DNA from: Naegleria gruberi
Lineage: Eukaryota
DNA length: 64,000 bases
NCBI GenBank assembly: GCA_000004985.1
Contig: GG738899.1
Reading direction: 5' to 3' (one strand)
Of this stretch, positions 38,095 to 51,530 are shown piece after piece. The notes below the pieces were generated by a model. The model did not search any database, had not been told where the DNA came from, and was given only the letters and a program-made list of their open reading frames with translations. The position numbers and the translations under genes are program-made. Position 1 is the stretch's first letter. Every line of letters starts with the position of its first letter.

Positions 38095-38412
<318 letters not shown>

Positions 38413-38772
38413 ATTGCTTTGCAAATTAGTAATTAATAATTATTGGATGATGAAAATCATCTAGCAAACATTTTCCCAACAAACAACTCGTCAAGAAATT
38501 GACACCCTAGGCTCTTGTACAAATAAATTATTAAAAATCAATAATTATTGAATATAATTTTAATTAAATTGTTTTGTTGGTGCGTATAATTCCAGCATAA
38601 TGAACTATTTAGTTTGTAGATAAGAGTGATATTAACAGAGATGGAAGAACAATTTACAAGAGATTTTATCACGCTCAATCTAATAATAAGATCAAGTTCT
38701 TTCATGCAAATCTCTTCATAAGAACAATTGGAAAATCAAAACATCACAGAAAACAATAAAAAGAAAATACAA

Positions 38773-40420
38773 ATGCTACCATCATCCGATACTAACAAAC
38801 CAAACAATACTTGTTACGAAATTGCAGGTGTTGGCTTTGCTGTTGCCCCCAAGACAGATTGCCCACACTTTGACTCTGAAGAGCACTTTGCTGTCCCATG
38901 GAATGATAGAAAGGCCATCAAGGAACTCTTCACAAAGGATGCTCCGTGTAGACATTGCCACTCCACAGCAGAGAATTGGTTCTGTCTCAAGTGCCAAGAT
39001 GTTTGTTGCTCTCGTTACCAGAAGAGCCACATGTTGCATCACTATGAAAAGACTGGTCATGCTTTGGTGTTGAGTTTAGCCGATCATTCATTGTATTGCT
39101 ATGAATGTGATGCCTATGTAGAGAACAAGACTTTAACAAGATTGCTCTTGAGAGAGTTACATCATGTAAAGTTTGGAGAATATCCAGGTGCTAATGGAGC
39201 CTCAGTAGAGATGGAAGAAGCCATTGAAAAGTTGAGAAATGTCTCTGAAGCCATTGAAGAGGAGAAGAAGAAGGTTGATTCGGAGAAGGAAAAAGCCTTT
39301 GAAATTCTAGCTGAAAAGATTCAAAGTGCCTCTGATGAATCAATTATTGTATTGACTGGAGCTGGATTGTCCACTAGGTAGGTTTATTCATTATTATTAT
39401 CCTTATTATTGATTGTTAATATTATTATCATCATCATTATACTTGTTATAATATTCAATGATTCAATTGTAATATTTAAATATTATTAATGATAATAATT
39501 GGATAGTGCTGGAATTCCTGATTTTAGAACTCCTGGAACTGGATTGTATGATAATTTACAAAAGTATAATTTGCCTCATCCAACAGCCATTTTCGAGTTG
39601 AAATATCTTCCAACTAATCCTCATCCATTCTTCCATTTGAGTAGAGATTTCATTTCTTCTGGATATAAACCAACTAAAGCTCACTACTTTATCAAATTGT
39701 TGGAAGAAAAGAACAAGTTGAAGAGATTATATACTCAAAATATTGATGGTTTGGAAGCCAAGTCAGGTAGGTTTGTCAATATTACAGAATATTTATTGTG
39801 ACAATTTTCAATCATTTAAAGGAATTACAAAGGAGCACTTGGTAAATTGTCACGGAATGTACGATATTGGTCACTGTATTGAATGTTCAAAGGAATATTC
39901 ATTGTCTGAAATTGTAAAAAAGATGGGAACTGATGAAGAAGTCCAAATTCCAAAGTGTGACAAGTGTGGACATATTGTCAAACCAGATATTGTCTTGTTC
40001 GGAGAGTCATTACCTAACAAATACGTAGATTGTTGCAAATCAGATTTGCTTCGTTCCAAGGATTGTGAAGTCTTCATTGTCATTGGTACTTCCTTGTCAG
40101 TCTAGTAAGTAATTGAATTATTTTTTTATTGACCTAATAATTGTAAAAATAGTCCTGTTGCTGGTTTACCAGAATATGCTCCAGAAGGATCAACACGTGC
40201 TCTTCTTAATCGTGAAAAATGTGGACCTTTCAGTAAGGTGAAAGGAAATGTTGCTGAAGTTGGAGATGATTCAGATTATTTGGATTTGTTCCTTGGTGGA
40301 GAGGATTCATCCATTGATGAATGTGTTGAAAAATTATGTAAATTATTAGGATGGGAAGCTGAATTGGAGGAATTATATGTTAAAGGACCAGTCGATCTCG
40401 TAGAATTGAGTAAGAAATAA
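38773..40420 (+). CDS. sirtuin (Sir2-family NAD-dependent deacetylase) with N-terminal UBP-type zinc finger; 4 exons
   Basis: Exons 38773-39377, 39507-39766, 39822-40104 and 40153-40420 (donors GTAGGT/GTAGGT/GTAAGT; acceptors ATAG/AAAG/ATAG; frames verified). ZnF-UBP: 'CPHF...[48 protein letters not shown]'. Sir2 motifs '[21 protein letters not shown]', '[10 protein letters not shown]', '[14 protein letters not shown]...[17 protein letters not shown]', '[14 protein letters not shown]'. Confidence 0.85.
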
Positions 40421-41439: not shown

Positions 41440-41748
41440 CTCCAATTTTTTTGTTATTATTTTCATGTAGTTTATCAAATAGGTTGCTTTTTCTGAACTA
41501 TCATTTAGTCAACTGAAAAATATGAGAAAGAGGTGAAGTTAATACTCTTGCTCACCGTCGAAGATGGTTTGAATTAAGGTAAACACTTGTACAAAAAGAA
41601 TACAGAGAAGCGTCCAACAGGTGTCATTGTCCTGACATATGCCAAAGTTGTTATATATGCTCAGATTCAAATAAATTCACTTAATTCCTATCCTAGTGAC
41701 TTGTTTCAACTTAAATCGGTTTATATTTCACAAGTTAAGATTATGAAT

Positions 41749-41867
41749 GGCTACGGCCATATCACGATTCATGCACCTCATCCCGTCCGATTTGAGAAGT
41801 TAAGCATCGTCGAGCCACATCAGTACTGAGGTTGGAGACAACTTGGGAACCTGTGGTGCTGTAGTCT
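41749..41867 (+). rRNA. 5S ribosomal RNA gene (copy A)
   Basis: GGCTACGGCCATA...CCGTCCGATTTGAGAAGTTAAGC...GGTTGGAGACAACTTGGGAACCTGTGGTGCTGTAGTC aligns position by position with eukaryotic 5S rRNA. Helix I pairs 5' GGCTACGGC with 3' GCTGTAGTC. A T6 run follows immediately. Confidence 0.9.
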
Positions 41868-41873
41868 TTTTTA
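41868..41873 (+). terminator. Pol III oligo-T terminator of 5S copy A
   Basis: TTTTTT directly after the 5S 3' end. Confidence 0.7.
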
Positions 41874-41971
41874 TTTTTTCTCTATTTCTATTTTTCTGTG
41901 ATATAAAGCACCTTAATTAATATCAGTTGTGGACTAGATCTATTAGCAACTTATTTTCTTCTTGAATAACT

Positions 41972-42043
41972 TCCCGTGTAGTCCAATGGCTAGGATACCT
42001 GGCTTTCACCCAGGAGGTCCGGGTTCAATTCCCGGCATGGGAG
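41972..42043 (+). tRNA. tRNA-Glu (anticodon TTC), copy 1
   Basis: TCCCGTGTAGTCCAATGGCTAGGATACCTGGCTTTCACCCAGGAGGTCCGGGTTCAATTCCCGGCATGGGAG: 7-bp acceptor stem, anticodon loop CTTTCAC, T-arm GGTTCAATTCC. Confidence 0.9.
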
Positions 42044-42117
42044 GATAATTTTGCAAAAGATAATTTATTTGGTAACCTTTTATTAATGGAAAGGGTTATT
42101 GAAATGGAACAGTTGAC

Positions 42118-42612
42118 TTAATCAATAATGGTTTTCTTTAACTTTTCTTCAATTTCTTCCTTTTGCTTTTTCACACTTTCAGCTTGTTGTTTCAAACTTT
42201 CAATTCGATTATTGAGTTGATCACTGATGGTTCCTCCCAATAACAACACAGTTTCATTTTGTGCATTCATTTCTTTCTGAACCATTTCTAATTCTATTAA
42301 CATGTATTCTAATTGCATAGACATCTCTTGGAAGTCTTCAGCTTTTCTCTTTTTCATTTCTATCATTTCAATGAATTGTTTCTTGACATTTTCAATTTCG
42401 AATAATTCTTGTGATGCTTGTTCAACTCTATAAGCTTTTTCTCCGATCACTTTCGAATAATTCTTGATCAAGGTTCTCCAAAAGGTTTCTGATTGAACCA
42501 ATTGTTCATGAATTTTTTTGTTGATCGAAAGAATATTTCCCAAATGTTTAACGGAGAGAATGGAAAATATTTCAATTTGCAACTCGGAGGGAAGATCAAC
42601 AAAGTTTGACAT
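42118..42612 (-). CDS. small F-box-like coiled-coil protein
   Basis: 164-aa ORF. N-terminus 'LPSELQIEIFSILSVKHLGNILSINKKIHEQL' is F-box-like; the remainder is predicted coiled coil. Confidence 0.5.
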   Translation of the reverse strand: MSNFVDLPSELQIEIFSILSVKHLGNILSINKKIHEQLVQSETFWRTLIKNYSKVIGEKAYRVEQASQELFEIENVKKQFIEMIEMKKRKAEDFQEMSMQLEYMLIELEMVQKEMNAQNETVLLLGGTISDQLNNRIESLKQQAESVKKQKEEIEEKLKKTIID

Positions 42613-43115
42613 TTTTTAAAATTGTTATTGGATGAGATTTTTGAAATTGCATAATATCATGATTTGATGAAGGTAAATAATTTATTGTTGTCATTCTTCC
42701 GATCAAAGCTTTGATTTCATATTAGATTTTATCTATCTTAAAGATTTTGCTTTGTGTTTTCTGGCTGATTCCGAAGGAGAATTAAATAATTTATTTAATT
42801 CATTGTAAAAAAGAAGAATATTAATATTGCAATCAGACTGAATTTGAACCACTCTATTTTTAAATTATACAAAGCAACACAAAGAATATGAAAATGAATG
42901 TGCATATTTGAAATTGAAGATGAGGGTCATTTTCGTAAGTGAATCAGATTCAAATTCAAACACAAGTCTGAAAGTGAAGCTGTGGTGGAGGTTCAAATTG
43001 AAAACAAGCTATTTAAACAGCTCTCGAGATATTCTCACTCCATCAAACCAAACAAAAAAAACAAGTTAACAAACAGCTCATTCAGCTCAATATTCAAATA
43101 CAGTAAATTTAAAAT

Positions 43116-45680
43116 ATGGTCAAGTTCAGTAAAGAAATACTCGAAAGGCTCTTACTCGACAGTAACAAGATTCGTAACATTAGTATTATTGCTCACGTTG
43201 ATCATGGTAAATCAACACTCACTGATCAATTGGCTTTAGCAGCTGGTTTAGTGGATGAAGATGCTGCAGGTGAGAAGAGAGTTTGCGACGTCGATAAGAA
43301 TGAAATTGAAAAGGGTATTACCATTAAATCAACAAGTTTGAGTATGGTATTGGAAAATCCAGACAAGGAGAATGATCATCATTTGGTTAATTTGATCGAT
43401 TGTCCAGGTCACATTGATTTCTCATCTGAAGTTAGTACAGCTTTGAGAATTACTGATGGTGCAGTGTTGATTGTTGATGCTGCTGAAGGTTGTAGAGGTC
43501 AAACTGAAACAGTAATTAGACAATCTCTTCAAGAAAGAATTCGTCCAGTTCTCTTCATTAATAAGGTTGACCGTTTGATTGAAGAAATGCAATTTACTGA
43601 AGAAGAAAGTTATCAAAACTTTTTAAGAATTATCGAGTCTGTGAATGCTCTATTATCAACTTATTCTGATGAGTCAGTTTCTGTTGATCCAGTTGACTGT
43701 AACATTGCTTTTGGATCAGGTAAGATGGGTTGGGCTTTCACTTTGGAGCAATTCGCTCAATTATATAGCAAGAAGTTTAAACTTCCTGTTGAGAAGGTTA
43801 TTAACAAATTATGGGGTGAAAATTATTATGATCACTCAACTAAGAAGTTTACCACTGAACCTTATTCATCGACAAGTGGTCAACAATTGAAACACACTTT
43901 CTGTGAATTCATTTTAGAACCTATTTTCAAGATTTTCAAGTTGGTTAGAGAACATCAAATTTCGAGTGAAGGTATTTTGCCAACAGATTTGGAAAATATC
44001 ATTAGTGCATTGTCTATACCTCTGACGAAAGAAGAAAAGAGAAAGGAGCCGAAACTTTTAGCTAAATCAATCATGAGAAAGTTCCTACCAGCTCACAAAC
44101 CTCTAGTTCAAATGATTATTAACCATTTACCTTCTCCTAAGGAAGCTAAAAAGGTCAGGTATGATAATCTCTACACTGGTGAAGATTTGACAGATCCATA
44201 CGCTACTGGTATTAAGGAATGTGATCCGAATGCACCACTGGTTGTCTATGTCAGTAAGATGGTACCTATGCACTCTAATACTAGCTCTAGTATGAGTAAT
44301 AATGTTGGTCGTTTTATTGCTTTAGCTCGTATCTTCTCTGGCAGTTTGACTCAATCAACTAAGGTAAGAATTCTGGGTCCTAACTATGATCCAATTGCTA
44401 AGAAAGATGTTTTCCATACAAGCATTCAAAGATTGTTAGTCATGGTTGGTAAAAATACTGAAAGCATCACTCAAGCTTCTTGTGGTGCCATCGTCGGTAT
44501 TGTTGGTCTTGACAAGTACATTATCAAATCATGTACATTGACAGAAGAAGGACAAGTTGCATGTATGCCAATTAAGAATATGAAATACTCTGTGAGTCCT
44601 GTTGTTCAAATGGGAGTTGAGCCAGCCAATCCAGCTGATTTATCTCGATTTGTTGAAGGTTTGAAACGTCTCGTTCAAAGTGATCCTCTATTGGAATGTA
44701 AGCAAAATGATAGTGGTCAACATATTCTAGGAACAGCAGGTGAATTGCATTTGGAAATTTGTTTAAAGAATTTGGAAGAAGAATATGCAAGAGGAATTCA
44801 AATTAAAAAGTCTCCTCCTGTTGTCACTTTCCACGAAACAGTTTCAAATAAGAATGGAGACATGGTCATGGCCAGAAGTGCAAACGGTCACAATCGTTTA
44901 TACATGCAAGCTGAACCAATCAGTGAGGAATTGATTGAAATGATTAAGGAAGGTCAATTGCCAATGGATGATCAAAATAAGAGAGCAAAGATTTTAGAAA
45001 TTGACTTTGAATGGGATCCTAGCATAACAAAGAGAATTTGGAGTTTTGGACCTGAAGCTGATAAGGGTAGTAACATTTTGGTTAATGCAACCAAGTCAGT
45101 TGACTATATTAATGAAATTCAACAATATGTTGTCACTAGTTTCCAACAAAGCAGTTCTTCAGGAGGTTTATGTGATGAAGCAATGAGAGGTGTTTTATTC
45201 AAATTTAATGATTGTAATCTTCATGCAGATTCTATCCATCGTGGAGCTGGTCAAATTCTCCAAGCAACATCACGTGTCATGACTGCTAGTCAATTGAGAG
45301 CTGATCCAAAGTTAGTTGAACCAATGTATCTTGTTGAAGTTCAATGTCCTCAATCAGTGATGGGTTCTGTCTATAGTGTCATTTCCAATAGAAGAGGTGT
45401 TATCAAATCTACTGAAATGGTAATTGGTACTCCTCTCGTTAGTATTACAGGTAATTTACCTGTGCTGGAAAGTTTCGGTTTAACAGAAGAGTTGAGAGGT
45501 GTGACTCAAGGACAAGCTTTCCCTCAATGCAGTTTCAGTCATTGGAAAGTAATGGAAGACAATGTTTATGATCCTCAATCTAAAGTTCACAAGCTCATCA
45601 AATCTATCAGAAAGAGAAAGGGTCTTAAGGAAGATATACCACTCTACACAGATTACTGTGATGCAATGCCTAAACAATAA
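43116..45680 (+). CDS. elongation factor 2 family GTPase, divergent eEF2 paralog
   Basis: 854-aa intron-less ORF. G-motifs 'AHVDHGKST', 'DCPGHIDFSSEVSTALRITDG', 'NKVDR'. The diphthamide-loop 'HADSIHRGAGQI' and C-terminus '...SIRKRKGLKEDIPLYTDYCD' match eEF2, but the overall sequence is much more diverged than canonical eEF2. Confidence 0.8.
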   Translation: MVKFSKEILERLLLDSNKIRNISIIAHVDHGKSTLTDQLALAAGLVDEDAAGEKRVCDVDKNEIEKGITIKSTSLSMVLENPDKENDHHLVNLIDCPGHIDFSSEVSTALRITDGAVLIVDAAEGCRGQTETVIRQSLQERIRPVLFINKVDRLIEEMQFTEEESYQNFLRIIESVNALLSTYSDESVSVDPVDCNIAFGSGKMGWAFTLEQFAQLYSKKFKLPVEKVINKLWGENYYDHSTKKFTTEPYSSTSGQQLKHTFCEFILEPIFKIFKLVREHQISSEGILPTDLENIISALSIPLTKEEKRKEPKLLAKSIMRKFLPAHKPLVQMIINHLPSPKEAKKVRYDNLYTGEDLTDPYATGIKECDPNAPLVVYVSKMVPMHSNTSSSMSNNVGRFIALARIFSGSLTQSTKVRILGPNYDPIAKKDVFHTSIQRLLVMVGKNTESITQASCGAIVGIVGLDKYIIKSCTLTEEGQVACMPIKNMKYSVSPVVQMGVEPANPADLSRFVEGLKRLVQSDPLLECKQNDSGQHILGTAGELHLEICLKNLEEEYARGIQIKKSPPVVTFHETVSNKNGDMVMARSANGHNRLYMQAEPISEELIEMIKEGQLPMDDQNKRAKILEIDFEWDPSITKRIWSFGPEADKGSNILVNATKSVDYINEIQQYVVTSFQQSSSSGGLCDEAMRGVLFKFNDCNLHADSIHRGAGQILQATSRVMTASQLRADPKLVEPMYLVEVQCPQSVMGSVYSVISNRRGVIKSTEMVIGTPLVSITGNLPVLESFGLTEELRGVTQGQAFPQCSFSHWKVMEDNVYDPQSKVHKLIKSIRKRKGLKEDIPLYTDYCDAMPKQ

Positions 45681-46019
45681 GAGTTTTAGCATTTAGTAAT
45701 AAATTGCCTTTTTCTCCAATCTTTCAACAGTACATAACAATCGGGGATGATTCTTAACAAGTTTGAATCAATATCTATCAATATCTATCAATATCTCAAA
45801 TTGAATCAATCTTCAATAACCATATGGTAAAGTATTATTTTTTATTTTAACAAAAATTCAGTAAGGATTTTGAGGCGCTTGTTACCATTGTTGATTTTCT
45901 TGATGACTGCTTTCTATCATTGATTAGCGTTTTCAGAGGCGATACTAGAAATGATATTGAAGACAATGATTTATAATAAGGAAACAATACAAAAAGTTGA
46001 AGGAGAAACAAGCAAAAGT

Positions 46020-46100
46020 TGCAGAAGGTGGGATTTGAACCCACGAAGCTTGCGCAGTAGAACTTGAGTCTACCCCCTTTGACCACTCGGGAACCCCTGC
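46020..46100 (-). tRNA. tRNA-Leu (anticodon CAA), class II with long variable arm
   Basis: Reverse complement GCAGGGGTTCCCGAGTGGTCAAAGGGGGTAGACTCAAGTTCTACTGCGCAAGCTTCGTGGGTTCAAATCCCACCTTCTGCA. D-loop GAGTGGTCAAA, anticodon loop CTCAAGT, T-arm GTGGGTTCAAATCCCAC. The acceptor stem has two G-U pairs. Confidence 0.7.
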
Positions 46101-47303
46101 TTCATATAATCTTATAAACCTGGTTGTTCACTTTGAATATACCAACATTCTGTATTTTCAAGTTAGCCCATTGCTCACCTTAGCATCTTATTTTCATTAT
46201 CTTCCACAATATTCTTTATCATCTTTATTCGCCTTGAAACCAATCCTTAATTTATTCTCCCAGCTTATTCAACTATTTTCTTGAATTGAATTTCCAATTT
46301 TCCCAATTTTTTAACCATAACTTTTCCTCGCAACATTTCACACTTTCACAACCAATATAACATCATTGAGGATGCAAGATTGAAAAAACCATTGACTGTA
46401 CTTCTACAGGATCTTTTCTGTAGGAATACATAAACTCGACTTTTTTGAGTCAATCTGACCTTTGAGGTTAACCAAGATGAAGACTCTGTAGTCACATATC
46501 TTGAGCATGATATCGAACTGGAAACATGCTTCGTTGTAGGTTTCCTCGTTCATAGATGATTGCTGCATTCCTTACCAGCCATGGTTTGTGAATGGGGGAT
46601 TTGTGAACATGCAGATTGGTACCTTAAACTTTTTATCAATTAAAAGAAAAATATTACAACTATGCCCGAGAGCTGCCAATTAAACTCTATAACAAAACTT
46701 TCCTTTTATTATTAATCAACATGGCCCGTCGTATCTTCATTGCACTGTATTGGAGTTAGGGTTTTATTTTGTCTTGGAAAGCAAATATTTGAAGACTCAA
46801 ATTCGAAATTTGAAGGTTTATTGATCAACCACAAGTTTCTCTTTCTAAATAGATAAAATTCAAAGGTGATAAATATATGGTCACGTTGCAAGTTCTTCTA
46901 AACAATAACTTACTGAACCAACAATCAATAGATTCGTTGCCTTCACTGTTCATACAGTCAAAGACTGTAGCGGGATTGTCGCCATATTCCTGGCAGGCTT
47001 CCCGTCTAATTTACCAATTGAACAATATCACAACATATTCCCTTTTACTGTATTCCTGTAATAAGGGCAGTACATTGATGTAAAAGCTTTCTTAAAAGTT
47101 ATCAGGTTTCTCCTGTTGATTATTGTTTGATAAGAAATAATTACCATTAAGGCAAATTCATTTAAAATTACAATCCATTAGTTCCTGACAAATAACTATG
47201 CATGAATTTGTGACTTATGGCCAAACTGTAGGATAAAATCATTTTGTTAAAAAAAATGAAACATTTGGTGCAGATTTATATTGCAGAAATTAGGTTAATT
47301 GAT

Positions 47304-47421
47304 GGCTACGGCCATATCACGATGAATGCACCTCATCCCGTCCGATTTGAGAAGTTAAGCATCGTCGAGCCACATCAGTACTGAGGTTGGAGACAACTTG
47401 GGAACCTGTGGTGCTGTAGTC
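47304..47421 (+). rRNA. 5S ribosomal RNA gene (copy B)
   Basis: Identical to copy A apart from ~3 substitutions (cacgatGAatgc vs cacgatTCatgc). Followed by T7. Confidence 0.9.
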
Positions 47422-47428
47422 TTTTTTT
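47422..47428 (+). terminator. Pol III oligo-T terminator of 5S copy B
   Basis: TTTTTTT directly after the 5S 3' end. Confidence 0.7.
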
Positions 47429-47459
47429 CATATCAAAATTTGTTTTATTAAGCTTGCTA

Positions 47460-49901
47460 TTAAAGTAAGTCTTGAAGTGAATCACTGCAATTCTCCTCAG
47501 GCAACAATTGCAACAATCGTTTAGACCTTTCGAATAAATTTAGAACAATTGGCGAATCACTCCAAACATTAGCCAATCTTTCACACAAGCAATACAATTG
47601 GAAATAGTGCTGAGAGAACAACAAATCCCTTACCAGCAACAAATCCTTTTCCATCTTCTTCTCATATTCAGAGGCCTCATTCCTGAATGCTACTAAATTG
47701 TAAATGCAAGTTGAATTACTCTTTCCTCTCAATTTGAGTAGATCAACAAAGTGAAAGATAAATTCCTCCCTCACCTTATCAACAATCTCACCACTCACAA
47801 GGATGGAACCAAAGTTTTGAGCGAGTGATTGTAATCTTAATGCAATGTTACACTCGTCACCAATTACTGTAAATGACATTCTGCTCTTACTGCCCAAACA
47901 ACCAACAAGCATTTCACCACATGTAATTCCAATAGAAATATCCAATTGAATACCCATTAGAATCTTCCATTTAGAGTTCAAATCCTCAATTACTTCCATG
48001 CATTCAATGGCAGTTTTACAAGCTCTTGATTCATGATTTGCACATCTGAATGATTTTTCATTCCAAAATACCATTACAGTACCCTCAATGAATTTATCAA
48101 TAATTCCACAATGGGCCTCAATGACCTGTGATATGGAGCTATAATATTCTGTAATGATTCGAATAAATGCTGTAGTTTCGGTCTTTTCAGAAAGTGTTGC
48201 AAAATTATTGATACCACAATACAGAACTGTCATGCTCGGTTCTAATTTCATACCAATTTTACCGTACTCTTGCTTATTTGAAACAATCATCTTGGCAATA
48301 ATGTGTGGAACATACTTGCTGAATGCAAATATTCCTCTTTGGGTGATTTGAATATTTTCGTCCATTTCCTTGATTTCACTGAAAATTGTAACATGTTTCT
48401 TGTATGGAGTTTCTAAACCTTTGAATGAAATGAGATGATTCATTTGCTTGGTAATGTCTATCAGTGGTTGATTAATTGATTGAACAACGCATAAAACAAT
48501 TAAGGTTTCTAATACAAAAAAAATGATAAATAAAATTACAGAAACAACACCAGAAGAAATGACCTCGGAGAAATATGTCTTCTCCAAACTCGTCGTGACC
48601 ACAGTGCATGTCAGATTGTAGGTATCCCTCACTGTTGAAACTTCTACAATTTTCCCCTTATAATGAAATATGTGAGATTCGTTTGCATTCAGATTCAAGT
48701 TGTTTAAATCAGAGCGATGAATTTCTTCAGAAATATCATCAATAGATGGATCGTTCTCACTGCTTCTTGCAAAAATACCTCCAGTTCCATTGATAATGAA
48801 TGAACTGTATAGAAGAGCTGTGGATGAGTTCGCAACATTGACATTTTGAATTTTGAATTCCAAAGCAACTATTCCAAATAAATAATCATTATGTGCACCC
48901 TTCATACGCTCTAATTCCTCAACTTGAATGGCATGAAGAGTGGAATTACCTCCTGACAATGTATAATTTCTTACTGGAATATGACTATATATGGGATAGA
49001 CAAAAAAAACTGAATATAAACCCTCCTCGTTCAAGGAAGCACTTGTCCAACATGGTCCAGCTACCTTCTTCGACTGCCTAATCTCTCTGTACCAATCACA
49101 ATCGGTTGGTGATGAATTAATTGACTGGTTTTCTGCCTTGCTGTCAACCAAATCTAAATCATCATATGACAACAGGTGTGAATTCGTATCTCTTATTCTA
49201 TACGTTAAACGAATATGCTCCTCTTCTGAAGAATTATTTGGAAACTTTCCAGTTTCGAACAAATTATGATTTTTAAATATCAAGTAATAATCGTCAAATC
49301 TTACAAATTGAATGGAAACTAGTTGAGTACTGGTAAGCATTCTGTCAGTGGCTCTTATTACTCGCATCCATTCAATTTGTTTGTCCAATTCCATCATTTT
49401 CCCAATAAATAAATTGTAAAACATCAAGTCAACCAGATTTCTAGCAGAATTGTGAATTTTCACAACTCTCATTCTCAATCTGTACGTAGTTTCCCATCTT
49501 TCATATCCACTTGTGCTTTTGTAAATCTCAGATCCACTTGAGAAGAGCAAAACGAAAGAAGCCAAAATTCCAAAGAATGTTTGAAACACAAACAAGACGA
49601 AAATTAAATTCATAATTCGGAAACCATATCTAGTGCAGTTTAGTCCACATTCTCCACATTTTGTTTGATGGTTCTTCTTCTTTGATTTCTTTAGAGACAA
49701 TATTTGACTTTTTGATTCAGTTTCGTTTGTTTCTTCTTTTGCATTGTAGCGATGAATTATTGGAAACTCATTACCATCATCGCTATCAAAATCAGATGAG
49801 AACGCATCCATGAAATCTAATCTAGACTGTTTTCTCATTTTCCCTCCTCCAATAATTGATTCTCTTCTGTTTTGATGTTTTCCATTCGTGTGTGAAAACA
49901 T
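47460..49901 (-). CDS. membrane class III adenylyl/guanylyl cyclase with extracellular sensor domain between two TM helices
   Basis: 813-aa ORF. TM1 'LIFVLFVFQTFFGILASFVLLF', a ~300-aa extracytoplasmic region, TM2 'VVSVILFIIFFVLETLIVLCVV', then a class III cyclase domain ('...FTVIGDECNIALRLQS...'). The topology is reminiscent of the dictyostelid osmosensing cyclase ACG and of bacterial sensor cyclases. Confidence 0.7.
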   Translation of the reverse strand: MFSHTNGKHQNRRESIIGGGKMRKQSRLDFMDAFSSDFDSDDGNEFPIIHRYNAKEETNETESKSQILSLKKSKKKNHQTKCGECGLNCTRYGFRIMNLIFVLFVFQTFFGILASFVLLFSSGSEIYKSTSGYERWETTYRLRMRVVKIHNSARNLVDLMFYNLFIGKMMELDKQIEWMRVIRATDRMLTSTQLVSIQFVRFDDYYLIFKNHNLFETGKFPNNSSEEEHIRLTYRIRDTNSHLLSYDDLDLVDSKAENQSINSSPTDCDWYREIRQSKKVAGPCWTSASLNEEGLYSVFFVYPIYSHIPVRNYTLSGGNSTLHAIQVEELERMKGAHNDYLFGIVALEFKIQNVNVANSSTALLYSSFIINGTGGIFARSSENDPSIDDISEEIHRSDLNNLNLNANESHIFHYKGKIVEVSTVRDTYNLTCTVVTTSLEKTYFSEVISSGVVSVILFIIFFVLETLIVLCVVQSINQPLIDITKQMNHLISFKGLETPYKKHVTIFSEIKEMDENIQITQRGIFAFSKYVPHIIAKMIVSNKQEYGKIGMKLEPSMTVLYCGINNFATLSEKTETTAFIRIITEYYSSISQVIEAHCGIIDKFIEGTVMVFWNEKSFRCANHESRACKTAIECMEVIEDLNSKWKILMGIQLDISIGITCGEMLVGCLGSKSRMSFTVIGDECNIALRLQSLAQNFGSILVSGEIVDKVREEFIFHFVDLLKLRGKSNSTCIYNLVAFRNEASEYEKKMEKDLLLVRDLLFSQHYFQLYCLCERLANVWSDSPIVLNLFERSKRLLQLLPEENCSDSLQDLL

Positions 49902-50165
49902 CTTTTTGTGAATTGTATTTTGTAAAAATTTCTTTTCTTATTGGAGTAATTCATCATTTTAGGATAGAGTTCATTGTTTAGAGTTTAAACCTATTTAACA
50001 ATATTCCATATAACACTAGATTCTTATGGATGTTCAATTAGTATTAATGCAGCTTTGGGAATTAGGTTCTTAGAATAGAAATTGGTTAGCACGTTTTAAA
50101 GAGAACATTGTAATAAAATAATTAATTCCGTGTATATATGGAAACTATTTTCATAATGAATAACA

Positions 50166-50237
50166 TCCCGTGTAGTCCAATGGCTAGGATACCTGGCTTT
50201 CACCCAGGAGGTCCGGGTTCAATTCCCGGCATGGGAG
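50166..50237 (+). tRNA. tRNA-Glu (anticodon TTC), copy 2
   Basis: 72/72 identical to copy 1. Shared immediate flanks: 'gaataac' upstream and 'gataattttgc.aagataatt' downstream. Confidence 0.9.
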
Positions 50238-51530
50238 GATAATTTTGCCAAGATAATTTTCTTTGAACAAGTATGAAGATTTTTGAGACATTGTTCTTAT
50301 TTGGAATGTTTTGAATACAAGATGTGAATCCTATTACTCTGATATGAAATTGAGCAAATTTCCAACAACTATTTTTGAGCATGTGGATATTAGCTGGCCT
50401 TGACCAGTTCAATGAAACGCATCTGGGTTTCCTCACTCAACACGCAGCAAAATCACTCACAATCAATTATTTGATGAGCATTCAACAGACCTTTGATTGC
50501 AACACCTCAAACCATTTCAACTTCCTTCACATACATCATGTACATCTACAATCAACAAGGTAGATCAACAAAGTGTTGAGGATAAGCAACAAGATGGTTC
50601 ACACTTCATAATCAACAAGACGAGTTTCATGATGCAGCCTTTTCAAAGTGGCCTTTCACATGTAAGGTTGGCGCTTGTAATTGAACTTCTAAAGTCTCTG
50701 AATGCAACAAGCAGATACTCAACATGCCATACATACAAATTTTTGCATCACTTGAATAACCTTTTCATTTGTCTATCAACACTCATGCGCTTCTTTTTTA
50801 TTGGTTATTGTTGGAAGAAAATTCCACGAGTGTAAGAGAGCCAAGTATAAAGGCAACCATACTACTATACATAATAATCTATTAAAACAATAGTTGATAA
50901 TGCCAAGCACTGTTCTAATATTCATGATGAGAGCAAGCCTTACACAATGAAGGAGTTGAACATTTTTAAATAAACTAGAAGCCAAGCATCAATGATGCCC
51001 AATATAATAACAATTCTTAAAGTTATTATTTATCCTGGAAGTTATTCATTATATTATGAAGGTATTTATTACTAAATATTACCTGAGAAAGATGATAAGT
51101 TGAGAAGGAATACAAGTTGAGGTGAGATCATCTCTCTCGGGTTGGTCTTCCAAAAATTGTTCCAATTCAATTTCCTTTTCATCATCTTTTGAAGAGAGAT
51201 GCAAAAAGGAATACTAGACATTTAACCATTTGCCAGGTTTTGAGATAATGGTGGGCTTAGAATTTAACGAAAAAGGTTTGCCTGTTGTTTGCCTTCTTGA
51301 TGTGTTTTGAAGCTATGGGAGTACACTACAATTTCCTTTTTGCTTAAAATTTTTATCTCAAAACGCGGCATGGGAATATCCTTTTCACTTTGAAATAGAA
51401 CGGTCATCTATTCTTCCTTAGAGACAACGCAGAATGGATATGTCAAGATTTGGAAAAGGTATGAACCTCTATTTAACTGTCTTACTCTAGAATGTAACAA
51501 TACACCAAAATTCAATAACAAAAAAACAAC

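Follow-up and report, generated by a model that had tools for sequence, protein, structure and literature searches.

A 64-kb stretch of Naegleria gruberi DNA (contig GG738899.1, hereafter the window) carries two 5S ribosomal RNA (rRNA) genes, three tRNA genes and one U3 small nucleolar RNA (snoRNA) gene. We are confident, short of certainty, that this region is an ordinary, loose grouping of small-RNA genes, each transcribed independently, on a nuclear chromosome. The cluster would bring together two members of a dispersed 5S family (~279 genes), three of the ~924 tRNA genes and a single U3 gene, with three protein genes interleaved. Each 5S gene would be a self-contained unit of ~153 bp, comprising a TATA-like box at -29 to -22, an internal control region and an oligo-T terminator, and each tRNA gene would rely on an A box, a B box and a T4 terminator of its own. 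Such an arrangement would involve neither co-transcription of 5S with tRNA nor a composite module. The copies would have arisen by dispersal of units of ~130–150 bp, or by gene conversion between copies, and selection or homogenisation would keep them nearly identical.

A search of the whole window recovered a compact set of six genes. We scanned all 64 kb with Rfam cmscan (Infernal) at gathering thresholds and typed tRNAs with ARAGORN; all six small-RNA genes found lie inside positions 41,749–50,237. A permissive Rfam scan of the same 64 kb, with E values up to 1, added nothing to the six, and neither scan matched small- or large-subunit (SSU or LSU) rRNA in the window. A preliminary description, made from the letters of the stretch, had listed two 5S genes, two tRNA-Glu genes, a tRNA-Leu gene and an eEF2-like gene. 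All of these stand: Rfam matched the 5S and tRNA genes at the coordinates it gave, and ARAGORN returned Glu(ttc), Glu(ttc) and Leu(caa). The list had, however, overlooked the U3 gene on the plus strand at 46392–46620. Six uniformly placed points would fall within so short a span (8,489 bp of 64 kb) with P = 2.2e-4, so the clustering is not due to chance. For comparison, 924 tRNA genes (PMC2888827) and 279 5S genes in ~41 Mb predict 1.9 genes of RNA polymerase III (Pol III) per 64 kb and 0.25 per 8.5 kb.

Both 5S genes are full length and differ from each other by one two-base change. Copy 1 (41749–41867, plus strand) scores 100.3 bits against RF00001 and copy 2 (47304–47422, plus strand) scores 105.4 bits, where the gathering score is 38; both cover the full model, positions 1–120. 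Pairwise alignment places their sole difference at adjacent positions 21–22, which read TC in copy 1 and GA in copy 2 (..CGAUUCAUGC.. and ..CGAUGAAUGC.., respectively), correcting the earlier figure of ~3 nt to 2 nt. Minimum free energy folds of both copies form the canonical Y-shaped three-way junction, at -37.6 kcal/mol for copy 1 and -41.5 kcal/mol for copy 2, and in the fold of copy 1 helix II ends one G-C pair short. Copy 2 is probably the canonical sequence and copy 1 a variant of it.

The signals in and around the 5S genes suggest a TATA-assisted type 1 Pol III gene, the layout that Feng et al. (2012) proposed. The TATA-like octamer TTTATATT sits at -29 to -22 of both genes (41720–41727 and 47275–47282). 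Across both strands of the window (128 kb) this octamer occurs seven times, about the number expected by chance, and two of the seven stand at the 5S offset. Inside both genes, the alignment reveals an internal control region with a box A-like element (..AAGTTAAGC..) and a box C-like element (..GGTTGGAGAC..), the latter having two mismatches to the consensus quoted from Feng et al. (PMC3369914). Downstream, a T6-A-T6 run begins at 41867 after copy 1, and a T7 run follows copy 2. Similarity between the two copies is confined to a 153-nt repeat (family D1; 41720–41872 and 47275–47427, 93% identical) that starts at TTTATATT and ends in the oligo-T run.

The three tRNA genes likewise carry their own signals: their B boxes are exact matches, and T4 runs lie within 10 nt of their 3' ends. 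The two tRNA-Glu(UUC) genes, at 41972–42043 and 50166–50237 on the plus strand, score 67 bits each against RF00005; the B box of the first, GGTTCAATTCC, occupies 42022–42032. They are identical at 72/72 nt and share short flanks, as had been noticed earlier, and they belong to a 131-nt repeat (family D2; 41941–42071 and 50135–50265) with 88% identity. The conserved flanks consist of a leader of ~27 nt (..ATTTTC..TGAATAAC) and a trailer of ~28 nt (GGATAATTTTGC...) that holds the T4 terminator. The tRNA-Leu(CAA) gene, at 46020–46100 on the minus strand (48.7 bits, RF00005), is intronless and of type II, with a long variable arm. Its B box lies at 46031–46041, a TATA-like sequence, TTTATAAGATTATATG, at -20 to -5, and its T4 terminator 3 nt downstream. 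Flanks common to two tRNA genes, as in the tRNA-Glu pair, are unusual for dispersed eukaryotic tRNA genes, barring recent duplication or gene conversion that includes the flanks.

Identifying the organism removes most of what had seemed odd about these genes. The eEF2-like protein encoded at 43116–45680 is 99.3% identical to protein P0001 of N. gruberi NEG-M, with 6 substitutions, and 65%, 64% and 58% identical to its counterparts in N. lovaniensis, N. fowleri and Willaertia magna. These identities place the window in Naegleria gruberi (Discoba, Heterolobosea), not in the dictyostelid frame of the preliminary description, and the comparison with the Dictyostelium rDNA palindrome is therefore inapplicable. 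The six residue differences point to a strain or haplotype that differs slightly from NEG-M. The ribosomal DNA (rDNA) plasmid of Naegleria, a circle of ~13–15 kb, bears single 18S, 5.8S and 28S genes and no 5S gene (PMC12482156). Chromosomal 5S genes are thus the expected state and not a departure, and the surprise first attached to them came from assuming a dictyostelid. The observation itself was sound: the 5S genes are chromosomal, lie amid protein-coding genes, adjoin tRNA genes and stand outside any rDNA unit. Dictyostelium discoideum, whose palindrome carries 5S, and Naegleria both keep their large rRNA genes extrachromosomally, although they belong to different supergroups.

The organisation seen here was published for N. 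gruberi in 2012 and is ordinary for the organism. Feng et al. (PLoS One 7:e36878, PMC3369914) listed 279 putative 5S genes in the NEG-M genome, none placed with rDNA units; these genes combine an internal control region with a TATA box upstream, and transcription factor TFIIIA was not detected. Being chromosomal, unlinked to rDNA and equipped with both promoter elements, this dispersed family is the closest match to the window among known systems. That paper concerns 5S only and does not describe the neighbouring tRNA-Glu, tRNA-Leu and U3 genes. We parsed the coordinates of all 279 genes from its Table S1 and found them spread over 117 scaffolds. Between 5S genes on the same scaffold, only 1 of 162 gaps is under 1 kb and 38 are 6 kb or less, with a median of 34 kb. 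Another 5S gene lies within 6 kb of 72 of the 279, against ~22 expected at random, so a pair ~5.5 kb apart is typical. The clustering of 5S with 5S in Table S1 and the clustering in the window establish that small-RNA genes of N. gruberi are loosely clumped.

Table S1 very probably lists the window's own 5S genes. Entries R33737 (169752) and R33450 (175307) of scaffold_55 are 5,555 bp apart, equal to the distance from 41749 to 47304. The upstream entry has a similarity value of 0.733, against 0.75 for its partner, which corresponds to 2 nt fewer and fits the TC variant of copy 1. The recurrence of this spacing in the independent NEG-M Sanger assembly argues against misassembly.

Several points weigh against reading the region as an ordinary cluster of independently transcribed genes. 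Activity of the 5S copies is presumed, least securely for variant copy 1, which has lost a helix II pair. U3 may be transcribed by Pol III or by Pol II. The proposed identity with the scaffold_55 pair draws on matching distances and similarity values rather than on aligned sequence. Finally, Table 1 of PMC3369914 scores N. gruberi 5S as 'tandem: yes', at odds with the paper's own coordinates; 'dispersed with loose clusters' describes these genes better than 'tandem'.

The sole mildly new point is a U3 gene paired with a divergent tRNA-Leu gene. The U3 match (46392–46620) scores 76.7 bits against RF00012, where the gathering score is 34, and covers the full model, positions 1–219. The 5' box A region, the C', B and C boxes and the terminal stem are all aligned; box D is CAGA instead of CUGA, and posterior probability is low across the central region. 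An AATATAA element stands at -38 to -32 and a T5 run ~10 nt beyond the 3' end. U3 on the plus strand and tRNA-Leu on the minus strand diverge across 291 bp, which puts the tRNA-Leu B box 351–361 bp upstream of the U3 start; a search of the 291-bp interval found no B-box-like element. Our literature searches found no description of a Naegleria U3 gene.

This pair recalls trypanosomatids, in which a divergent tRNA gene 71–106 bp upstream of U3 is required for its transcription by Pol III (PMC2784804). Read in that light, the region would be a trypanosomatid-style Pol III neighbourhood in which Pol III transcription of U3 depends on the divergent tRNA-Leu, through TFIIIC bound to its A and B boxes; we think this unlikely. 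The divergent orientation, the T5 run and the AATATAA element suit it, as do the significant clustering of the six genes and the membership of Heterolobosea and Euglenozoa alike in Discoba. So does the precedent of Leishmania, whose dispersed 5S genes always adjoin tRNA genes and at times cluster with U3 and U1 (PMC2695483; PMC2784804). Of the trypanosomatid promoter geometry, however, only the orientation is present: with a spacer of 291 bp instead of 71–106 bp, the B box lies ~350 bp from the U3 start, where trypanosomatid A and B boxes lie ~100–160 bp upstream, and no B-box-like element intervenes. In a genome of 66% A+T, ~7% of positions should have a T5 run within 20 nt, and a resemblance seen in a single instance may be chance. 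The cluster is also missing from the orthologous loci of three relatives. A related reading of the divergent pair, the T5 run and the clustering with 5S and tRNA genes, in which Pol III transcribes U3 and the adjacent tRNA gene boosts its expression by recruiting TFIIIC or TFIIIB or by excluding nucleosomes, strikes us as quite improbable.

Gene density further separates the window from the Leishmania clusters. In the Pol III gene clusters described for L. major / L. tarentolae (Padilla-Mejia et al. 2009; Charette & Gray 2009), as here, 5S genes are linked to tRNA genes and U3 shares the cluster, with a divergent tRNA gene upstream. The Leishmania clusters are compact, however, with mean spacers of ~200 bp, 13 genes in 2.7 kb and no protein genes inside, whereas spacers in the window range from 104 bp to 2.7 kb and three protein genes are interspersed. 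Leishmania has 11 5S genes, as against ~279 in N. gruberi.

It is very unlikely that either or both of the 5S genes are inactive, as pseudogenes or as relics, or that their arrangement is an artefact of collapsed or misjoined repeats. The 2-nt change in copy 1 does cost a helix II pair, 5 bits and ~4 kcal/mol, and Table S1 of PMC3369914 also holds truncated, low-similarity 5S entries. Yet both window copies are full length, score far above threshold and retain an oligo-T terminator and, at an identical offset, a TATA-like box, and their flanks are unique sequence. The 5,555-bp spacing and the 2-nt deficit, moreover, recur in the NEG-M Sanger assembly despite six residue differences in the eEF2-like protein. 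The preliminary description had named low Infernal scores, or placement of all other 5S copies in a tandem rDNA unit, as grounds for doubt. Infernal in fact scores both genes well over the threshold, and the remaining copies are scattered instead of sitting on a tandem rDNA unit; the genes are therefore genuine and the contig no chimera.

The idea that a composite 5S/tRNA-Glu Pol III module was duplicated as a segment, leaving two pairs that bracket the eEF2-like gene, is extremely improbable. Its appeal is plain: 5S and tRNA-Glu are each present in two nearly or fully identical copies that agree in strand and order. The preliminary description accordingly had each 5S followed by a tRNA-Glu gene and took the pairing for a segmental duplication. 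Copy 1 does have a tRNA-Glu gene 104 bp downstream, but after copy 2 the gap is 2,743 bp and contains a gene for an 813-aa cyclase on the opposite strand. We aligned the copies pairwise with 200-nt flanks and searched 39–53 kb for repeats. Similarity resolved into D1 and D2 as separate short repeats, whose copies start 5,555 bp and 8,194 bp apart, respectively; neither the flank alignments nor the repeat search found similarity linking the tRNA-Glu leader with the 5S terminator, or any outside the two units. Around the units a search for signatures of a mobile element found no target-site duplications, A-tails or longer repeats, only 18–25 nt repeats at chance level. An environmental contig with a Naegleria-like 5S gene, described below, also has no tRNA gene within 0.5–1.3 kb. 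The separate units and differing spacings imply that duplication or homogenisation acted on each short unit separately, with no composite segment involved.

Two further candidates were rejected. A tandem 5S array, or 5S embedded in rDNA, does not fit copies that are 5,555 bp apart with unrelated flanks and no SSU or LSU in 64 kb, and a true tandem array is also at odds with the published coordinates, where a single gap among 162 is under 1 kb. A chimeric contig was rejected on the Infernal scores and the dispersal of the other copies.

Dispersed 5S genes in fungi offer partial parallels to the loose cluster we describe. In Neurospora crassa and Schizosaccharomyces pombe, as in N. gruberi, tens to hundreds of solitary 5S genes are dispersed among protein genes, and copies have in common only the gene and a short flank bearing a TATA-like element near -30. 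We know of no report of systematic linkage of 5S to tRNA or U3 genes in either fungus. S. pombe has ~30 dispersed 5S copies (PMC2566860). In Yarrowia lipolytica, 5S genes are also scattered outside rDNA and many adjoin tRNA genes; its dicistronic tRNA-5S genes, for which TFIIIA-independent expression has been discussed (Acker et al. 2008, Nucleic Acids Research 36:5832; PMC2566860), invite comparison with N. gruberi, in which TFIIIA was not found (PMC3369914). In Yarrowia, however, the tRNA directly precedes the 5S with no terminator between them, and a fusion transcript covers both, whereas in the window the 5S comes first and has its own TATA-like box. A dicistron of the Yarrowia type was rejected on this reversed order, on the T6-A-T6 run between 5S copy 1 and the tRNA, and on the lack of an adjacent tRNA at copy 2.

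The cluster is neither conserved nor ancient at the eEF2-like locus. We scanned the orthologous loci of N. fowleri, N. lovaniensis and W. magna, taking 10 kb on either side where the contig allowed (58.7 kb in total; the N. lovaniensis contig ends ~1 kb downstream of the locus), and found no Rfam match at any of them.

Environmental sequences also show solitary 5S genes. A metagenome scan with a 27-nt 5S core returned 13 short contigs (1–7 kb), each with one solitary 5S gene in unique flanks and with neither a tRNA gene nor an rRNA operon. One is Naegleria-like and twelve come from other organisms, 11 of these sharing one distinct 5S; with a single Naegleria-like contig, the sample is too small to measure linkage of 5S to tRNA. 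The Naegleria-like gene (L008 539–657, Ga0247722_10036048) differs from window copy 2 by 1 nt, GAAA for GAAT in loop B. Its TATA-like element, AAATTATAGA, lies at -26 to -17 rather than -29 to -22, so the position of the 5S box is not fixed across close relatives. The distinct 5S of the 11 contigs (L004–L007 and L009–L015; VFQM.../VFQO...) has the loop C/helix III core in common with Naegleria, differs elsewhere and is followed by a short T-run. Eleven contigs with a single 5S in unrelated flanks indicate that another protist also has dispersed 5S genes.

The region is a typical example of how N. gruberi stores its 5S genes, as hundreds of solitary copies of ~150 bp, each bearing a TATA-like box and dispersed in loose clusters amid protein genes, while 18S, 5.8S and 28S reside on a plasmid. 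Its importance beyond annotation is small. The useful outcomes are the correction to a heterolobosean, the exact extents of the 5S and tRNA-Glu units, and a previously unlisted U3 gene with a divergent tRNA neighbour, which raises the question of whether snRNA and U3 genes of Naegleria are tRNA-linked, as in its euglenozoan relatives.

The interspersed protein genes lie in a window of ~34% G+C whose open reading frames (ORFs) are long and mostly uninterrupted. A 164-aa ORF on the minus strand (42118–42612) is convergent with the first tRNA-Glu gene and separates Pol III genes; its F-box-like match is weak (PF12937, E = 7.7e-5, 22.8 bits, under the curated cut-off of 24.3). The 813-aa ORF on the minus strand (47460–49901), which sits between 5S unit 2 and the second tRNA-Glu gene, encodes a membrane adenylate/guanylate cyclase (Pfam Guanylate_cyc, E = 5.2e-14). 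Upstream of the cluster, a histone H4 gene (38101–38412, plus strand) is followed by a product split over ORFs 38728–39381, 39499–39801 and 39743–40105. Its translations have a UBP-like zinc-finger N-terminus and sirtuin-like motifs (GAGLSTxxGIPDFR...); this is probably an intron-containing sirtuin gene.

The third interspersed gene encodes the eEF2-like GTPase, 854 aa and intronless, on the plus strand. Pfam finds the full set of domains (GTP_EFTU, D2, EFG_III, EFG_IV and EFG_C), and the translation keeps AHVDHGKST, DCPGH, NKVDR and the diphthamide-His loop HADSIHRGAGQ. Identity to the canonical N. gruberi EF2 (P0081) is 48%, and a rough neighbour-joining tree, drawn with no support values, puts the protein in a Naegleria paralog group distinct from the canonical one; Willaertia belongs to neither group. 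Judged by these comparisons, the gene is a member of a divergent paralog clade found only in heteroloboseans and not the canonical eEF2, in agreement with the preliminary description, which had called it divergent. The paralog group is also present in N. fowleri, N. lovaniensis and W. magna, and perhaps in Acrasis. EF2-like genes number at least three in N. gruberi. In a second paralog, P0007 (60% identical), the G3 motif is degenerate, reading DCPAFMNY in place of DCPGH, and the switch region is shortened; this protein may be a pseudo-GTPase.

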